DNA from: Trichodesmium erythraeum IMS101
GTDB lineage: Bacteria > Cyanobacteriota > Cyanobacteriia > Cyanobacteriales > Microcoleaceae
Reading direction: 5' to 3'
DNA: 32,000 nucleotides
Assembly (NCBI RefSeq): GCF_000014265.1
Contig: NC_008312.1
Coordinates: 6,210,001-6,242,000 of the forward strand
Shown here: positions 2,390 to 9,134 of the stretch, piece by piece
Layout: each line of letters begins with the position of its first letter
Numbering within the stretch: position 1 is the first letter of the stretch
Program-made: the position numbers and the translations under genes
Notes under the pieces: generated by a model
What the model saw: only the letters and a program-made list of their open reading frames with translations
The model's database searches: none
What the model was told of the DNA's origin: nothing

Positions 2390-4834
2390 ATGAACACAAT
2401 TCCAACTCAATGTCAAGACTTAGAAAATCAGGTAGGTATACTACTTCAACTATTATATCAAGAGCCTACTCTTAGACAACAAGATACAACAGCAGTTCGT
2501 TCTTCCTTAAATAAAGTAATTTCCCCAAAGTTTGAAATAGTATTTGCCGGAGCTTTTAGTGCAGGAAAGTCGATGTTAATTAATGCTTTATTAGGGAGAG
2601 AATTACTTTATAGTGCTGAAGGTCATGCAACAGGAACAGAATGCTATATCGAATATGCTGAACCAGAAAAAGAAAGAGTAATTTTGACATTTTTAAGCAG
2701 AGCTGAAATTCAAGAACAGGTAAGAATTTTACGACAGCAATTAGGTTTAGAATCTAATCCCAATATTGAACAATCAGAAGTAATTGGAATTATCCGGGAA
2801 CAATGCAAAGCAATTATTAAAAATGAAGGAGGAGAAAATAAATCGGAACGTGCCAAGCAAGCAAAAGCATTAAAATTATTAGTGGATGGTGTTGAGACAA
2901 ATAAAGAATATATTAATCCTATTGAAAATGCTATTTATTCAATGGAACAGTTCGACTTTTCTAACCTAAAAGAAGCAGCAAGTTATGCCAGAAGAGGAAT
3001 GAATAGTTCTGTGTTGAAGCGCGTAGAATATTATTGTCATCATCCTTTATTAGAAGATGGCAATATTATTATTGATACCCCAGGAATTGATGCTCCTGTA
3101 GAGAAAGATGCTCAAGTTACTTATGACAAAATAGAAAACCCAGAAACTTCTGCAGTTGTCTGTATTTTAAAAGCTGCTGCTGCAGGAGATATGACAATAG
3201 AAGAAACGGAACTGTTAGAGAAAATGCGAGAAAATCCTGGTATTAGAGATCGGGTTTTTTATGTCTTTAACCGTATAGATGAAACTTGGTACAATTCTCA
3301 ACTTAGACAACGATTAGACAATTTGATTATTTCTGATTTTCGAGATACAAAAAGGATTTATAAAACTAGTGGCTTATTAGGTTTTTATGGTAGTTTAATT
3401 AAGGATACAAGCGGGCGGGAGCGCTTTGGTTTAGATAGTATATTTGCTAATAGTATTAAAGGTTTAGATGGAGAGGAAGAAACACCTCAATTTGTTTATG
3501 CTTTTAATAATTATTGTGGCACTTCTCGCAAGTTGCCGAGTAATTTTCGGGTCAGTATTAATGGTTTTGAGTCACCTAATGAAAATTATGTCAGGATTTT
3601 AGCGGACTGGGGTAAACCATTAATCAAACAATTAATAATTGATAGTGGTATAGAAGAATTTAGGGATGGAATTACTCGATATTTAAAGGAAGAAAAACGC
3701 CCACAATTATTTGCAAATTTGGCTGATGATTTACAAAATATTTGTATACAGTTACAGAAAAATTATTTGGCAACTCAGCGAGACTTAGCAAGTCAACCTC
3801 AAGAAATAGAGGCAATGAAAGCTCAGGAATTATCATTATTAAATTTTCAACTTCAGGAGGTGGGCGAAGGATTTAATCAACATATTACTGAGGAAGTAAA
3901 TTTACTAGTTACAAATAAATATGATGCTTTTGAAGCAGATTTTAATCAACTTCAATCTCGAATGATTCGTCGTTTAGATGAACTGTTAGATACTTTTTCT
4001 GTAGAGGCTGCTTATAGTCGGGCAACTGTTAATCATCCACGGAATGCAACGGCTCCTTTATTGGCAGTTTTAGTTGAAGCACTTTATTATTTAGCAAATC
4101 AATTAGAGGATATTTTAGTTGACTCTACTCAGTCAGTAATAACTGGATTTTTTCAAGGTTTAGTTGACCGAATTCGCAAGTCAGAATATTATCGGCAACT
4201 CTATCGTTTGTTAGGTAATGATGGAGGAATTGAAAAATGTTTAAAAGAGGTAGAAAAAAAGGTTAGTACGGCATTAATAAGTGCAGCGCGAATAGAATGT
4301 GATAGATTTGTGCGAGAAAGTCCGCGTTTTTATGATGAAGGAACTTTTTCTATCTATCAGTTTCGGCAGACTTTGTTACAGACTTCTCAAAGTTTTGACT
4401 GTAGCAGTATGGTGGAGGCGGAACCTGCAATTAGACAGTTGTTGAAGTTAGATTTTGAGCCAAAAGTTTCTCAGACTATTCGGCAAACTTTTCGACAAAC
4501 TGTGAATCAAACTTTGAAGACTAATTTATTACCAATGGCTGAAAAAAAAGGGGAAGATATTATGCAGCAATATAATCAAGCTCGGAAATATTTAGAGCAA
4601 AGTTTAGAGGCGGAAGCTGGAGAGAAAATTCAAAGAAATTTACGTTTACAAGCTGAGGTAGATGAGAAGGTTAAGGTTTATAATCAAGCAGTTTCTTCTA
4701 TTAATAGTTGTCTACAGGTGATGTTGTTGAATGAGCGACAGTTGCCAATCATTTCTGATTTTAATTTTGGCAAAGGTGAGGAAAATTTGGAGGTACTAAG
4801 TAATGAGGATGAGAAGTTATTGGAAGGTGAGTAA
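2390..4834 (+). CDS. Bacterial dynamin-like protein (BDLP/SynDLP-type large GTPase)
   Basis: 814-aa ORF. Dynamin-type G motifs occur in order: G1 P-loop GAFSAGKS, G3 DTPG (IIIDTPGID), and G4-like NRID. A long alpha-helical stalk-like C-terminal half follows. The size matches cyanobacterial ~800-aa DLPs. Confidence 0.85.
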   Translation: MNTIPTQCQDLENQVGILLQLLYQEPTLRQQDTTAVRSSLNKVISPKFEIVFAGAFSAGKSMLINALLGRELLYSAEGHATGTECYIEYAEPEKERVILTFLSRAEIQEQVRILRQQLGLESNPNIEQSEVIGIIREQCKAIIKNEGGENKSERAKQAKALKLLVDGVETNKEYINPIENAIYSMEQFDFSNLKEAASYARRGMNSSVLKRVEYYCHHPLLEDGNIIIDTPGIDAPVEKDAQVTYDKIENPETSAVVCILKAAAAGDMTIEETELLEKMRENPGIRDRVFYVFNRIDETWYNSQLRQRLDNLIISDFRDTKRIYKTSGLLGFYGSLIKDTSGRERFGLDSIFANSIKGLDGEEETPQFVYAFNNYCGTSRKLPSNFRVSINGFESPNENYVRILADWGKPLIKQLIIDSGIEEFRDGITRYLKEEKRPQLFANLADDLQNICIQLQKNYLATQRDLASQPQEIEAMKAQELSLLNFQLQEVGEGFNQHITEEVNLLVTNKYDAFEADFNQLQSRMIRRLDELLDTFSVEAAYSRATVNHPRNATAPLLAVLVEALYYLANQLEDILVDSTQSVITGFFQGLVDRIRKSEYYRQLYRLLGNDGGIEKCLKEVEKKVSTALISAARIECDRFVRESPRFYDEGTFSIYQFRQTLLQTSQSFDCSSMVEAEPAIRQLLKLDFEPKVSQTIRQTFRQTVNQTLKTNLLPMAEKKGEDIMQQYNQARKYLEQSLEAEAGEKIQRNLRLQAEVDEKVKVYNQAVSSINSCLQVMLLNERQLPIISDFNFGKGEENLEVLSNEDEKLLEGE

Positions 4835-4960
4835 ATGTGGTCTATTGGCGATTTAGGTAAACAGATTAATGTGAATATTTAGAGATATTTTTTAGTAAAT
4901 ATTTAGTCATTAGTAATTACCTAAATAACTGCTAAGAGCATTTTTTATATCACAGAAAAC

Positions 4961-4988
4961 TGTAGGATGTCTCAACAGATATCCTACA
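4961..4988 (+). promoter_or_regulatory. Inverted repeat between the BDLP and KGK genes (8-bp stem tgtaggat/atcctaca, 12-nt loop)
   Basis: Read directly from the sequence. There is no U-tract after it, so it is not a canonical terminator. It could be an RNA processing or attenuation element. Confidence 0.2.
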
Positions 4989-5025
4989 ATTAGATGCTAA
5001 TTTATTGGAAATAGAAGAATTAAAT

Positions 5026-5793
5026 ATGTCACAAAATTTAGATCATGAAAAGTTTGTTGTGTTGAATTTGCATGATGTTGTGAAAATTGATGCAAATTAT
5101 TGTGATTTTTTGAGCTTGGATAGAAATGAACTTGAATATTTGTGCCTAACAATTGAGCAGTTAAAAACTGAAATTATCCACAAGTTTTCTCCTGATATAT
5201 CTCATCGCTATCTTGTTGAGATACGAAATAAACTATTTGATTATAGTTTCGATGTTTGGATTTTGAAACCTGATGCCAAAAGCTGGAAAAAAGGGAAATT
5301 AAAGGTCGAATTTACTGTCAAATTTTACCCTGATGAACTTGAAGAAAAAATAGAAGAAAATCAAGCAGAAAATTATGGCAATAATAATTCAGAATTTTTG
5401 GAAGGGGATGAAGTTATTCAAGTTGATCAAAGTATAGGAACAAATTTAAATCTAAACTATAACTTTCAATATTTATATATGACAGTTAATCAATTACAAG
5501 GATCAATTATCAAGTTACTAAATATTAATCCTGTCATAAAGCATGAATTCTTTTATCCAAGTTTAAGGTGTGAAGTTTTGAGAGTAGGCACTCAAGGTTG
5601 GCAAAAAGGAAAATTTCATTTTGAATTTCCTGTCAAGTTTTACCTTGATAAGCCTCAAGAAGAAATAGAAGAAAATAAATTAAGTAACTCAGAAAATAAA
5701 GAGGAAAATTATGGCGATAATAATTCAGAATATCTGGAAACTGAACTATCTCCACTTGATGACTTACGGCAAAAATTTCATCAGGAAAATTAG
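5026..5793 (+). CDS. KGK-domain protein with two KGK domains
   Basis: Internal duplication: SWKKGKLKVEFTVKFYPDELEEKIEEN..NYGNNNSEFLE and GWQKGKFHFEFPVKFYLDKPQEEIEEN..NYGDNNSEYLE. The W-x-KGK motif is characteristic of the cyanobacteria-specific KGK domain family. The ATG at 5026 is preferred over the TTG at 5005. Confidence 0.7.
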   Translation: MSQNLDHEKFVVLNLHDVVKIDANYCDFLSLDRNELEYLCLTIEQLKTEIIHKFSPDISHRYLVEIRNKLFDYSFDVWILKPDAKSWKKGKLKVEFTVKFYPDELEEKIEENQAENYGNNNSEFLEGDEVIQVDQSIGTNLNLNYNFQYLYMTVNQLQGSIIKLLNINPVIKHEFFYPSLRCEVLRVGTQGWQKGKFHFEFPVKFYLDKPQEEIEENKLSNSENKEENYGDNNSEYLETELSPLDDLRQKFHQEN

Positions 5794-5917
5794 TAGAAAC
5801 TTTCTGGGAAAAATTTGATTTATGTCAGACATTCTCTCTCCCTACATATTTACTAGCTCCCTCCAAAATTCTGGGAGTAAATTTATCTGGAAAATCAATA
5901 TAAACCACTAAAAACTG

Positions 5918-6064
5918 ATGGCTAAAAATTTTCTGGAGAAAACAGGAAAACCTACAGAAACTTTCTGGGAAAAATTTGATTTATGTCAGACATTCTCTCT
6001 CCCTACATATTTACTAGCTCCCTCCAAAATTCTGGGAGTAAATTTATCTGGAAAATCAATATAA
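5918..6064 (+). CDS. Repeat-encoded mini-ORF copy 1 (48 aa, MAKNFLEKTGKPTETFWEKFDLCQTFSLPTYLLAPSKILGVNLSGKSI)
   Basis: The ATG-to-TAA frame is intact. There is no clear Shine-Dalgarno sequence. The coding status is unproven. Confidence 0.3.
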   Translation: MAKNFLEKTGKPTETFWEKFDLCQTFSLPTYLLAPSKILGVNLSGKSI

Positions 6065-6078
6065 ACCGCTAAAAACTG

Positions 6079-6225
6079 ATGGCTAAAAATTTTCTGGAGA
6101 AAACAGGAAAACCTACAGAAACTTTCTGGAAAAAATTTGATTTATGTCAGACATTCTCTCTCCCTACATATTTACTAGCTCCCTCCAAAATTCTGGGAGT
6201 AAATTTATCTGGAAAATCAATATAA
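6079..6225 (+). CDS. Repeat-encoded mini-ORF copy 2 (variant L6/T13/K18)
   Basis: Same frame, 14 nt after the previous TAA. Confidence 0.3.
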   Translation: MAKNFLEKTGKPTETFWKKFDLCQTFSLPTYLLAPSKILGVNLSGKSI

Positions 6226-6239
6226 ACCACTAAAAACTG

Positions 6240-6386
6240 ATGGCTAAAAATTTTCTGGAGAAAACAGGAAAACCTACAGAAACTTTCTGGAAAAAATTTG
6301 ATTTATGTCAGACATTCTCTCTCCCTACATATTTACTAGCTCCCTCCAAAATTCTGGGAGTAAATTTATCTGGAAAATCAATATAA
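6240..6386 (+). CDS. Repeat-encoded mini-ORF copy 3 (variant L6/T13/K18)
   Basis: Same frame, 14 nt after the previous TAA. Confidence 0.3.
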   Translation: MAKNFLEKTGKPTETFWKKFDLCQTFSLPTYLLAPSKILGVNLSGKSI

Positions 6387-6400
6387 ACCGCTAAAAACTG

Positions 6401-6547
6401 ATGGCTAAAAATTTTCAGGAGAAAACAGGAAAACCTACAGAAACTTTCTGGGAAAAATTTGATTTATGTCAGACATTCTCTCTCCCTACATATTTACTAG
6501 CTCCCTCCAAAATTCTGGGAGTAAATTTATCTGGAAAATCAATATAA
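6401..6547 (+). CDS. Repeat-encoded mini-ORF copy 4 (variant Q6/T13/E18)
   Basis: Same frame, 14 nt after the previous TAA. Confidence 0.3.
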   Translation: MAKNFQEKTGKPTETFWEKFDLCQTFSLPTYLLAPSKILGVNLSGKSI

Positions 6548-6561
6548 ACCACTAAAAACTG

Positions 6562-6708
6562 ATGGCTAAAAATTTTCTGGAGAAAACAGGAAAACCTGTA
6601 GAAACTTTCTGGAAAAAATTTGATTTATGTCAGACATTCTCTCTCCCTACATATTTACTAGCTCCCTCCAAAATTCTGGGAGTAAATTTATCTGGAAAAT
6701 CAATATAA
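6562..6708 (+). CDS. Repeat-encoded mini-ORF copy 5 (variant L6/V13/K18)
   Basis: Same frame, 14 nt after the previous TAA. Confidence 0.3.
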   Translation: MAKNFLEKTGKPVETFWKKFDLCQTFSLPTYLLAPSKILGVNLSGKSI

Positions 6709-6722
6709 ACCACTAAAAACTG

Positions 6723-6869
6723 ATGGCTAAAAATTTTCTGGAGAAAACAGGAAAACCTGCAGAAACTTTCTGGGAAAAATTTGATTTATGTCAGACATTC
6801 TCTCTCCCTACATATTTACTAGCTCCCTCCAAAATTCTGGGAGTAAATTTATCTGGAAAATCAATATAA
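6723..6869 (+). CDS. Repeat-encoded mini-ORF copy 6 (variant L6/A13/E18)
   Basis: Same frame, 14 nt after the previous TAA. Confidence 0.3.
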   Translation: MAKNFLEKTGKPAETFWEKFDLCQTFSLPTYLLAPSKILGVNLSGKSI

Positions 6870-6883
6870 ACCACTAAAAACTG

Positions 6884-7030
6884 ATGGCTAAAAATTTTCA
6901 GGAGAAAACAGGAAAACCTGTAGAAACTTTCTGGAAAAAATTTGATTTATGTCAGACATTCTCTCTCCCTACATATTTACTAGCTCCCTCCAAAATTCTG
7001 GGAGTAAATTTATCTGGAAAATCAATATAA
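6884..7030 (+). CDS. Repeat-encoded mini-ORF copy 7 (variant Q6/V13/K18)
   Basis: Same frame, 14 nt after the previous TAA. Confidence 0.3.
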   Translation: MAKNFQEKTGKPVETFWKKFDLCQTFSLPTYLLAPSKILGVNLSGKSI

Positions 7031-7044
7031 ACCACTAAAAACTG

Positions 7045-7236
7045 ATGGCTAAAAATTTTCTGGAGAAAACAGGAAAACCTGCAGAAACTTTCTGGGAAAA
7101 ATTTGATTTATGTCAGACATTCTCTCTCCCTACATATTTACTAGCTCCCTCCAAAATTCTGAGAAGTAATGGATATTTTTTCCCAGTTCGTACTCAGTGG
7201 AAAGCTACAAATATTTTCGTTATTGAAAGCTCCTAA
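7045..7236 (+). CDS. Repeat-encoded mini-ORF copy 8 (63 aa), with a different C-terminus because the array ends inside it
   Basis: This is the track ORF. It is identical to copy 6 through APSKIL, then reads RSNGYFFPVRTQWKATNIFVIESS from the flanking sequence. Confidence 0.3.
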   Translation: MAKNFLEKTGKPAETFWEKFDLCQTFSLPTYLLAPSKILRSNGYFFPVRTQWKATNIFVIESS

Positions 7237-7620
7237 AAAAATCGCGCTTCAAAGATATTTTTAATTGCATCTTCACAATTTTTGTGATATCTTTATAAGT
7301 GTAAGGGCTAACTCGTACAAGTGTATGATTTTTTGTTCAACTAATTTTACTAGTCCAGAAAAAGAATTAAATATTGTTGATAAATTTTCATCTTAAAAAG
7401 CTCCTAAAAAGAAATGGTGATTTTTTTATCATTAAACCTTTCCATCCATTCTTCTTCTCTTTTTCAGTGGAAAATCATAAATATTTTCATTTTATCAAGC
7501 TCTAAAAATTACAGATAAAAGGTATTACTAGTTGCATTCTCACAATTTTTTTTATATAATAAGGTTAGATGGGGTTGTTCGCCTATATGTATGATTTTTT
7601 ATTCAACACAAATAGCATAA
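7168..7620. repeat. Two diverged tandem copies of a ~245-bp element (A 7168-7412, B 7413-~7620; roughly 70% identity by eye)
   Basis: Blocks that align between A and B: aatggatatttttt/aatggtgattttttt; tcagtggaaagctacaaatattttc/tcagtggaaaatcataaatattttc; ttgcatcttcacaattttt/ttgcattctcacaattttt; gtgtatgattttttgttcaac/atgtatgattttttattcaac. Confidence 0.7.
7532..7560 (+). promoter_or_regulatory. Sigma70-like promoter, TTGCAT-17 nt-TATAAT, inside repeat copy B
   Basis: TTGCAT is at 7532-7537, TATAAT at 7555-7560, and the spacer is exactly 17 nt. Copy A has the same -35 box but a 23-nt spacer to TATAAG. No downstream gene or clear terminator hairpin was identified. Confidence 0.3.
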
Positions 7621-7887
7621 TTTATCAGGGAGCACGAATTTTGTAGAAATAAAAATCAACGTAAGAGATACCAGATGGGTTATATATATTTATATATATT
7701 AAGTGAAAGAGAAAAATTATATGGGAAACAAATTTGAAAATTACAGACATGATTAAGTTATCTGAGTGGAATAAGAGCTTCGTAAAAATCAATCCCAAAT
7801 AATCAAAAGTACAACCTTTCAAATTAATCAGTTAGTAAAAAAATTAGATAAAAAGATAGTTAGGGAGAAAAACTTAACTTTTAATAG

Positions 7888-8070
7888 TTTTGATTTTTAA
7901 TTTATTCAAATTAAGTTTATGCCTTTGGGTAAAAGGTAAAATCAAACTTGCCGTATAATTTTATCCTGATGAAGAAGAAGTTTCTCAAAAACAGGAAAAA
8001 AGTCATCTAAAAATAGTAAATCACAATTTCCACTCGATGATTTATGAGAAAAATTTAATCAGTAAAACTA
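7888..8070 (+). pseudogene. Decayed KGK-domain gene fragment
   Basis: The frame reads ..LCLWVKGKIKLAV*FYPDEEEVSQKQEKS.., which matches W-KGK-..-FYPDE-EE of the intact gene but carries an in-frame TAA. The tail ccactcgatgatttatgagaaaaatttaatcagtaaaac aligns with the intact gene's 3' end ccacttgatgacttacggcaaaaatttcatcaggaaaat. Confidence 0.5.
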
Positions 8071-8248
8071 ATATATAATAAAAACAATTATTTCTTATCG
8101 AAACTGCCAATAATTACAAATATTTTCTAATAGTCTAAGTATGTCAAAAATTTAATTTTTGAATATTTTTTTTGTAGGAGTTTAGTTGTTTTAAGAGTTT
8201 AGATACCAAGCAGGTTTGATTTCTAAACTCCAACCTTAGAAACTATTT

Positions 8249-8560
8249 CTATTTCCCACTATAATAAAAGGCAATTTCTTTTTCCTTCAATTGAGCAAAA
8301 TCTGCATTTTTTAACATATTATTTAACTCATCTTGGGAAATATGCTTCGCCCCAATACGGACGATACGAGACCGCATTGTATTACTAACCCCGCTCCTTT
8401 GTCGTTGACCTTCTAATGCCATAACCTTGTGATAAAGTTCGAGTTTTGGTGATGGAATAGGAGAGCCATCTAAATCTATTCCTTTAGCGATCGCCTCATC
8501 AACTGCATCCGCTCCAGTAGTTGGTGCAGGCAGAGAATTTATTTCCGAAGACATAGCCAT
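8249..8560 (-). CDS. Hypothetical protein (103 aa), family not recognised
   Basis: Clean ORF of normal composition containing a HIP1 site. I recognise no motif (..ELYHKVMALEGQRQRSGVSNTMRSRIVRIGAKHISQDELNNML..). Confidence 0.55.
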   Translation of the reverse strand: MAMSSEINSLPAPTTGADAVDEAIAKGIDLDGSPIPSPKLELYHKVMALEGQRQRSGVSNTMRSRIVRIGAKHISQDELNNMLKNADFAQLKEKEIAFYYSGK

Positions 8561-8683
8561 AAATTATTGAGTTTACATAATTATTTTATAGGCTCTTGGA
8601 GTATTTTTTTTTTAAATCCATTAAACCTAAATTAACGCTATAATTACATTATTTAAAATCAGTAATTTTCTGGGAAATTAATT

Positions 8684-8929
8684 ATGAATAAAACACCACG
8701 GATAAAAATTCCTAGTTCAGTTAAAAAATATGTGTTTGAGCGGGACAATTACCACTGCCAAAGTTGTGGTAAAAGTTCAACCCAAACAGAACTTAGTATA
8801 GACCATATTATTCCCCTTGCTAGAGGAGGCAGTAATGATATTAGTAATTTACAAACTCTCTGTCAAAAATGCAATAAAAAAAAGAAACATCATTTTGATC
8901 CCCGCTTTCAACGAAACTTTAGTAATTAA
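8684..8929 (+). CDS. Small HNH endonuclease
   Basis: 81 aa containing CQSCGK..LSIDHIIPLARGGSNDISNLQTLCQKCNKKK. This is the HNH signature: a Cys pair, DH, N and a CxxCN zinc finger. Confidence 0.85.
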   Translation: MNKTPRIKIPSSVKKYVFERDNYHCQSCGKSSTQTELSIDHIIPLARGGSNDISNLQTLCQKCNKKKKHHFDPRFQRNFSN

Positions 8930-9134
8930 AGAAAATTGCCATCAAACAAAATTAATTTATCAGTAAATATAACATAGCTAGAGGAGGCAGTAATGATATT
9001 AGTAATTTACAAACTCTCTGTCAAAAATGCAATAAAAAAAAGAAACATCATTTTGATCCCCGCTTTCAACGAAACTTTAGTAATTAAAGAAAATTGCCAT
9101 CAAACAAAATTAATTTATCAGTAAATATAACATA
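8819..9134. repeat. Perfect 158-bp tandem duplication (8819-8976 = 8977-9134) covering the last 111 nt of the HNH gene plus 47 nt downstream
   Basis: Compared base by base, with no mismatch seen. The second copy is a promoterless 3' gene fragment. Confidence 0.95.

Follow-up and report, generated by a model that had tools for sequence, protein, structure and literature searches.

A 161-bp tandem array lying directly downstream of the KGK gene Tery_4019 of Trichodesmium erythraeum IMS101 is, judging from its sequence, probably a young minisatellite that is specific for the T. erythraeum clade, was made from gene debris and carries no function. The array forms part of a stretch of 32,000 nucleotides (nt) of this genome (NCBI RefSeq assembly GCF_000014265.1, contig NC_008312.1, positions 6,210,001 to 6,242,000), which will be referred to as the window and whose own numbering is used below. 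Comparisons with related loci indicate that each unit of the array is the stub of a gutted KGK paralogue plus a spacer. An earlier reading of this DNA, made without database searches (the sequence-only reading), had mentioned a neutral minisatellite as its fallback, and it is this fallback that is best supported by the results described here.

The array, its period and its purity, as described in the sequence-only reading, were borne out by two kinds of analysis. Tandem Repeats Finder placed the array at 5795–7169, with 8.5 copies, 98% matches, 0% indels and a score of 2636, and a repeat search of the window recovered eight in-register copies with a spacing of exactly 161 nt. The copies are thus arranged head to tail, with a period that does not vary and a high mutual identity, as is characteristic of minisatellites. 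The earlier point that it cannot be one long repeat protein is likewise upheld. Its left border is formed by the tail of Tery_4019, which ends in ..NSEYLETELSPLDDLRQKFHQEN* (asterisks denote stop codons), and it is comprised of the following parts.

5794..5917, + strand: unit 0, recognized from alignments to the related loci L090, L093 and L007
5918..7044, + strand: seven full 161-nt units, supported by repeat, open reading frame (ORF) and alignment evidence
7045..7169, + strand: the last, truncated unit, consisting of the tail relic and spacer D up to CCAAAATTCTG

Unit 0 contains the authentic spacer that follows the KGK stop codon (spacer D), with its core GAAACTTTCTGGGAAAAATTTGATTTAT, a degenerate hairpin ATGTCAG..CCTACAT and an old Shine-Dalgarno sequence GGGAG, and, following this, the first of the relics left by the next gene's start, CTG GAA AAT CAA TAT AAA CCA CTA AAA ACT GAT G. 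Each full unit leads from a diverged relic of a KGK tail, in which a 6-nt deletion, an 8–9-nt insertion and a CAA-to-TAA nonsense change are found, through spacer D to the opening 11 codons of the following KGK gene, whose ATG has been changed to CTG.

The units vary at six sites, and the variants occur in mosaic combinations. As misassembly of a single copy would not produce an array of this kind, the possibility that it is an assembly artefact and that the true genome holds one or two copies is scarcely credible. In its favour, two near-identical short-read contigs (L087 and L088) carry 1.5 copies, and another assembly (L001) has an N-gap at the position of the array. However, short-read assemblers collapse or break at repeats of this type, and the 1.5 copies in L087 and L088 are most likely due to such a collapse; the independent short-read contigs L002–L006, all of which have an identical KGK protein, end ~30–50 nt after the KGK stop. 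Further, a Tara scaffold (L089) starts within the array and possesses one further full unit with its 48-codon ORF (see below) before the terminal unit with its 63-codon ORF. These two successive units differ in sequence from each other, and both of them match variant units of the window. A T. erythraeum-specific 37-mer, by which copy-number variants were sought in the JGI metagenome contigs, gave 0 matches. Based upon these observations, we concluded that the multi-copy array exists both in culture and in field populations.

The origin of the unit became apparent from its relatives. Using the dynamin-like gene that precedes Tery_4019 as a synteny anchor, 80 related loci were fetched and blastn searches were carried out with the 161-bp unit as the query. 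Copies that were 67–85% identical to the unit were found beside the same dynamin gene, several per locus, in Trichodesmium sp. MAG_R02 (a metagenome-assembled genome, MAG), five Okeania, two Dapis and two other Microcoleaceae genomes. The sequence-only reading had raised the question of whether homologues of the unit or of its peptide follow KGK genes elsewhere: relatives of the unit do adjoin KGK genes in other genera, whereas the peptide has no homologue outside the clade. In Okeania, Dapis, another Trichodesmium and metagenome contigs, KGK genes are arranged in tandem with a conserved spacer of ~90 nt between them. The 28-nt core of this spacer, GAAACTTTCTGGGAAAAATTTGATTTAT, is present in 30 copies (six or fewer mismatches) across the window and 10 loci, nearly always directly after a KGK stop codon (..SPLDDLRQKF(H/N)QEN(Q)*); one copy in Okeania (L008) is identical at 28/28 positions and several others have at most two mismatches. 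A metagenome scan with the core matched four contigs, among them L090, where the dynamin-like gene is followed by a KGK gene (148 amino acids, aa), an 89-nt spacer, a second KGK gene, another spacer and a third KGK gene. The three KGK ORFs of L090 are intact (5705–6151; 6241–6597, MENQYEPLETDEV..; and 6958–7293), the second and third proteins starting with MENQYEPLETDEVIEIEF.. and MGNKFEHLRDDEV.., respectively, and this layout is presumably ancestral.

In comparison with such loci, the unit aligned from end to end with three adjacent pieces, viz. the final ~33 nt of a KGK gene including its stop codon, the spacer with the Shine-Dalgarno sequence of the next gene, and the first 11 codons of that gene (alignment scores of 126 with L090 and 143 with L093). 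The colinearity of the unit with a KGK end, an inter-KGK spacer and a KGK start was also seen in an alignment of nine sequences (alignment A2). Shuffle controls, with 300 shuffles each, covered two sub-alignments, those of the junction part with the KGK tail and with the gene start in L007. The 36-nt start relic is identical to L007 17334–17369 at 33/36 positions, with a score of 60 as compared to 24.3 ± 4.0 in the shuffles (0/300). The whole non-spacer part of the unit also aligned with the tail of Tery_4019 (47 versus 20.5 ± 4.1; 0/300), and the degenerate unit 0 overlapping the KGK stop that had been described earlier is thus real. Derivation of the junction part from a KGK tail alone was considered and rejected, as the start of the next KGK gene fits better (33/36); there is also homology between the tail and the module start.

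The ends of the unit meet at a GATG that is shared by the tail, where it forms part of ..CTT GAT GAC.. (L-D-D), and by the beginning of the following gene, where it forms part of ..ACT GAT GAG.. (T-D-E). The distance between the two GATG(A) sites is 158–160 nt in intact loci, which equals the period of the array to within 1–3 nt. When translated in the old gene frame, the unit reads L-ENQYKPLKTDG-stop-KFSGEN, in comparison with MENQYEPLETDEV.. and ..DDLRQKFHQEN-stop in the relatives, so that a start relic of 11 codons, with ATG changed to CTG, continues in frame into a tail that has TAA in place of CAA. The end-to-end colinearity, the joint at GATG and this reading of the old frame together point to the unit being what is left of a gutted KGK paralogue, with its spacer attached. 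No match to any Pfam domain was obtained for the 48-aa and 63-aa products of the array at E ≤ 0.1; as only terminal codons survive, a KGK domain is not expected in a deletion relic. The sequence-only reading had derived the amplified segment from a small ORF overlapping the end of the KGK gene, but the relatives show a KGK tail in the KGK frame, then the spacer and then the next KGK start. An origin from an overlapping ORF was also rejected because, in the relatives, the frame in question lacks a start codon and is closed by the TGA of GATGAC.

The history that we propose would begin with a dynamin-like gene and, behind it, two or three KGK genes in tandem with the conserved ~90-nt spacer D between them, and a layout of this ancestral type is still present in related Microcoleaceae. 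In spacer D the conserved core lies just past the stop codon; the spacer also has a weak hairpin, accompanied by a T-rich tract, and carries the ribosome-binding site of the next gene. Through illegitimate recombination at the shared GATG(A), the second KGK gene would have been joined at codon ~11 (..K-T-D-E) to the KGK tail ..L-D-D-L, with an in-frame loss of its interior, and a product of 161 nt consisting of the start relic, the tail relic and spacer D would have been left. This stub would have decayed and would subsequently have been amplified repeatedly, unequal crossing-over or replication slippage between the spacer D after Tery_4019 and that of the stub multiplying the stub together with its spacer to about eight copies, homogenised at 97–100% identity. 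The decay of the stub is evident from the ATG-to-CTG and CAA-to-TAA changes and the small indels. The tail relic in the units is ~40% diverged from the authentic tail of Tery_4019 and the spacers are identical, which makes deletion, then decay and then amplification the simplest history. A direct unequal crossover between a KGK tail and the start of the next gene would yield the same unit, but it would account less well for the diverged tail relic. No 161-nt array was found at the locus of the sister Trichodesmium MAG_R02, where three KGK copies, two of them frameshifted, are each followed by one spacer D, and the 161-nt unit is found also in MAGs from the T. erythraeum clade. Hence, the amplification would be younger than the split within the genus. 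We infer that the array probably has no sequence-specific function and that it is at most a long 3′ extension of the Tery_4019 transcript.

The reading frame that is contained in the units was examined in view of the claim that they constitute eight peptide genes. Seven ORFs of 48 aa, extending from ATG to TAA, start at 5918, 6079, 6240, 6401, 6562, 6723 and 6884, with a gap of 14 nt to the next ATG in each case. The eighth ATG, at 7045, opens an ORF of 63 aa (7045–7236; WP_044136931), which runs into the unrelated flank. As this ORF leaves the array, there are seven intact mini-ORFs plus one chimera in place of eight intact ones. The peptide variants reported earlier, T/V/A at residue 13 and E/K at residue 18, were confirmed in the variable stretch MAKNFLEKTGKP(T/V/A)ETFW(E/K)K, but an L/Q difference at residue 6 had been overlooked. 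The mini-ORFs are annotated in RefSeq as hypothetical proteins (WP_155994505-510). The ATG of the mini-ORF is that of the ..GATGG.. at the recombination joint, and the ORF runs across the tail relic, shifted to +1 with respect to the frame of the old gene, then through the spacer, and stops at a TAA within the old gene start.

These ORFs could be taken to indicate a multicopy small-protein locus, where each unit is a functional 48-aa peptide gene that has been amplified for dosage. The seven intact ATG-to-TAA frames, their annotation as hypothetical proteins by the NCBI pipeline and the presence of the same ORF, with one substitution, in T. erythraeum-clade MAGs speak in favour of this interpretation, but it is very improbable for several reasons. 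When the unit was shuffled with preservation of its dinucleotides and tandemised, an ORF of at least 48 codons beginning with ATG was present in 11% of 2000 shuffles, and the stop-to-stop stretch of 51 codons is equal to the shuffle mean. The intactness of the ORF in every unit follows trivially from the 98% identity of the units. All five coding differences between the units, as well as an F5S change in a field MAG, are nonsynonymous (6/6). The probability of observing only nonsynonymous changes is 0.28 (5/5) or 0.21 (6/6) under neutrality, and 0.011 and 0.004, respectively, at an omega of 0.2; such variation is expected for a neutral sequence and unlikely under purifying selection. Among 5.8 billion proteins, the 48-aa peptide matched only T. 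erythraeum hypothetical proteins, and the members of its cluster come only from IMS101 and T. erythraeum-clade MAGs. An 880-aa GyrA-like protein, P0006 (JGI/IMG), that was placed in the 90%-identity cluster of the peptide is a clustering artefact and not a biological link. No purine-rich stretch that could serve as a ribosome-binding site was found within 15 nt upstream of the mini-ORF ATG (..AACCACTAAAAACTGATG); the sole GGGAG is located ~45 nt upstream and belongs to the old gene start. Additionally, the ORF is a composite of a gene relic read out of frame and an intergenic spacer, and in the relatives this frame has no start codon, contains the TGA within GATGAC, and is interrupted by stop codons or by indels that are not multiples of three.

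Thus neither conservation under purifying selection nor a length above chance combined with a ribosome-binding site, as would mark a small-protein family, was observed. With a length at the chance level, no homologues outside the clade and no synonymous variation, the claim of eight peptide genes did not hold up. The mini-ORF appears to be a by-product of the joint, and its reading frame looks like the result of chance rather than a conserved peptide gene. If so, seven RefSeq hypothetical proteins, viz. WP_155994505-510 and WP_044136931, are probable annotation artefacts.

Possible roles at the level of RNA were examined by scans for families, folds, promoters and terminators. No match to Rfam was found in the whole window at the gathering thresholds, nor in the region 5600–8300 at E ≤ 1. 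The unit did not fold better than its shuffles on the + strand (z = −0.78) or on the − strand (z = +0.40), and the same was true of the KGK 3′ region. No promoter-like site was found on the + strand of the array; on the − strand each unit has a weak match, TAGCCA-16-TATATT (9/12), and the total count of promoter-like sites equals the shuffle expectation. A terminator scan of 4800–8700 revealed no site that recurs in each unit, with a single − strand match inside one unit that is at the chance level. A promoter and a terminator in each unit, in combination with a stable or conserved fold or a match to a curated family, which would mark an array of small RNA genes, were accordingly not seen here. 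RNAalifold, when applied to the nine spacer copies, predicted a weak hairpin of −5 kcal/mol without covariation. In other genera the spacer hairpin reads ATGTAGG..CCTACAT and is followed by a T-rich run, which could represent the terminator of the KGK gene, but T. erythraeum has lost the pairing at two positions of the hairpin. As this hairpin is broken and no + strand terminator-like site is present from the KGK gene to 8700, read-through from Tery_4019 into the array is plausible. Translational extension of the KGK protein into the spacer by stop read-through or frameshifting (KLSxxKLIY after the TAG) was rejected, as all three frames are stopped in many copies across the genera.

An alternative that must be weighed against these results is that the array acts through a non-coding RNA, either as a transcribed, repeat-derived RNA or as a long 3′ untranslated region of Tery_4019 that titrates some factor via its nine cores. 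Support for it is provided by a seven-unit array in the same genome that carries the duplicated 3′ part of a gene and gives rise to its most abundant RNA, and by the fact that the share of non-coding RNA start sites in T. erythraeum is the highest known (PMC4143802). The conservation of the spacer core across genera, the lack of a + strand terminator-like site between the KGK gene and 8700, and the ancestral hairpin broken at two pairs are also in accordance with it. However, the units have no promoter-like site on the + strand and only a weak match on the − strand, their folding is no better than that of shuffles on either strand, and the spacer shows neither covariation nor an Rfam match. 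Moreover, the table of the top 20 transcripts in PMC4143802 lists nothing near the Tery_4019 locus. A role of this kind is therefore, in our assessment, unlikely, though it is the least improbable of the alternatives that are considered here. It is still less probable that the array, transcribed by read-through or from a cryptic start, serves as a sponge or decoy for the core, or that the 48-aa frame is an amplified de novo peptide gene. If the former were true, the nine copies of GAAACTTTCTGGGAAAAATTTGATTTAT would act as a decoy for a factor that binds the core of KGK mRNAs or DNA, and thereby tune the dynamin-like/KGK module. A literature search for Tery_4018, Tery_4019, Tery_4020 and the WP accessions of the mini-ORFs matched no papers.

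Certain observations do weigh against a minisatellite that is free of function. Between genera, the 28-nt core is conserved to a higher degree than the non-coding sequence around it and probably has a cis role in KGK expression, and the array holds nine copies of this element. T. erythraeum also transcribes non-coding repeats very strongly, including one array with a duplicated gene 3′ part (PMC4143802). Further, the order of the events, i.e., whether the internal deletion or an unequal crossover came first, is itself inferred, and the copy number of eight is that of a single finished genome, IMS101.

Bacterial intergenic minisatellites, or variable-number tandem repeats (e.g. the mycobacterial MIRUs), have units of tens to hundreds of bp that are homogenised by unequal recombination or slippage, and they often abut or overlap the ends of genes and carry incidental short ORFs. 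Unlike the MIRU-type repeats, the 161-bp unit can be traced to a specific deleted paralogue and does not belong to a dispersed repeat family. In the small RNA arrays of the NsiR1 type from the Nostocales, each unit possesses a regulated promoter, a terminator and a conserved structure. The present array resembles them in being cyanobacterial and tandem and in having a unit size of similar order, but its 161-bp unit has no promoter, terminator or conserved fold. Its host also is not a member of the Nostocales: T. erythraeum IMS101 belongs to the order Oscillatoriales, family Microcoleaceae, and hence the Nostocales small RNA precedents invoked in the sequence-only reading do not transfer by taxonomy.

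The array shares more specific features with the tandem KGK clusters (PMC5827413, PMC10104851), as it sits exactly where KGK genes follow the dynamin-like gene and its unit is built from KGK gene ends and the inter-KGK spacer. It differs from them in that its units encode no KGK domain; of the gene, only ~11 N-terminal and ~12 C-terminal codons remain, in a decayed form. A further comparison is offered by the >6-kb tandem array at 103–110 kb of the IMS101 genome described by Pfreundt et al. 2014 (PMC4143802), where head-to-tail copies that are >96% identical carry the duplicated 3′ part of the neighbouring gene Tery_0080. The two arrays are alike in being in the same genome, in having units derived from gene ends and in showing no similarity outside the lineage. 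However, the units of the >6-kb array are 736–973 bp in length as compared to 161 bp here, and each has a mapped transcription start and produces an abundant RNA of ~260 nt (PMC4143802), whereas no promoter, structure or evidence of expression was found for the individual units of the present array.

Arrays of this period and purity had been regarded as unusual, but they are common in this lineage, as illustrated by a 158-bp duplication (×2) near the array, by arrays of 339 bp (×6.8) and 454 bp (×3.8) in MAG_R02, and by the >6-kb array (PMC4143802). Tandem repeats derived from gene fragments are thus already documented in this genome, and the origin proposed here is a further case. Its significance lies in providing a fully traceable example of how the unusually large non-coding fraction of Trichodesmium grows, the route being that a paralogue is gutted by recombination at a microhomology of 5–6 nt and the stub is then amplified to a minisatellite. 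Possibly of greater interest than the array itself is a by-product of this work, viz. the conserved ~90-nt spacer, whose 28-nt core is nearly invariant and follows KGK stop codons in Trichodesmium, Okeania and Dapis.

The genes and elements surrounding the array are as follows.

2390..4834, + strand: dynamin-like GTPase Tery_4018 (ABG53036), Pfam Dynamin_N, E = 1.6e-16
5005..5793, + strand: KGK gene Tery_4019, 262 aa as read here, PF08872, E = 1.8e-24, in two stretches
7185–7350 and 7455–7620, + strand: two diverged copies of element B, recognized from repeat families and a nine-copy alignment (A1)
7720..8100, + strand: third KGK gene, a pseudogene (MGNKFENYRHD*VI*VE*...), recognized from three-frame translations and the ORF list of L090

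The identification of the upstream gene as a KGK protein in the sequence-only reading is confirmed by its match to Pfam PF08872 (E = 1.8e-24). Tery_4019 contains two KGK modules and an internal repeat of 315 nt, and it matches the cluster of ABG53037 / WP_011613367. Tery_4018 is a member of the KGK clade among the dynamin-like proteins of cyanobacteria, a clade whose defining feature is that a KGK gene follows directly downstream (PMC5827413, PMC10104851). A C-terminal motif, (E/D)xSPLDDLR(Q/R).., is common to KGK proteins and KGK-clade dynamin-like proteins of many cyanobacteria, including Okeania, Dapis, Phormidium and Nostoc; it is found at 5755–5793 of the window, at 12452 in L008, 2842 in L009, 10447 in L010 and 5516 in L011, and at many other sites. 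The dynamin-like protein of T. erythraeum, which ends in ..NEDEKLLEGE*, has lost this motif. The occurrence of the same motif in both types of proteins suggests that they share a partner or are linked by a short linear interaction motif, and the motif and the spacer core could help in working out the function of the KGK/dynamin-like module.

In T. erythraeum, the third KGK gene is interrupted by several in-frame stop codons and by two or more frameshifts. Intact versions are present in Okeania (L011) and L090, and in Trichodesmium MAG_R02 the gene is broken as well. This pseudogene and the 158-bp duplication described below mark the surroundings of the array as decaying in general, in keeping with an origin from gene debris. 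Element B, which is ~165 nt in length, is a conserved non-coding sequence located upstream of the third KGK gene in the relatives. An alignment (A1) of nine copies from four lineages contains 60 invariant columns, and the invariant features include TTGCAT-17-TATAAT-like hexamers and ..TCG..TGAyTTTTTATTCAAC. In the second copy of the window, TTGCAT (7532–7537) is separated by 17 nt from TATAAT (7555–7560). Two copies of element B are also found in Okeania L008 (15095–15545), and in MAG_R02 (L007 18207–19943) the element has become an array of 454 bp × 3.8. No Rfam match was obtained for element B. It could represent the promoter and leader of the third KGK gene (KGK_c), or a small RNA gene, and it belongs with the decaying KGK cluster rather than with the 161-nt array. 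By eye only, a 7-nt complementary match was noted between the spacer core and element B.

Other repeats were also noted in the vicinity of the array and in the related loci. At 8819–9134, 1.6 kb from the array, there is a perfect (100%) tandem duplication of 158 bp (×2), which consists of the last ~110 nt of an HNH endonuclease gene (8684–8929) and ~47 nt of downstream sequence. It is absent or collapsed in L087 and L088. From its makeup (a gene 3′ end plus downstream sequence) and its nearly equal size, this duplication appears to result from the same kind of event as the 161-bp unit. The 339-bp array of MAG_R02 (×6.8, 91% matches) lies upstream of the dynamin-like gene (L007 6441–8765). In Okeania (L008 13889–14282 and L011 6943–7240), the KGK tail together with the spacer core is repeated with a period of 126 nt (42 codons). 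Except for a conserved TAG, this repeat is in frame (KLSGENLIYLxxNxGDKNSExLExEVSPLDDLRQKFNxxNQ*), and it resembles a repeat protein with one stop codon per unit; it was not taken as a case of read-through, as other copies carry extra stop codons. Lastly, one of the spacer copies of MAG_R02 is split by a G+C-rich insert of ~50 nt (AAGGAATCCCGCGTTGTTTCCTAAGAGCAACGTCGGGAGGATGTCAAGT; L007 17055–17105), which may be a miniature inserted element.

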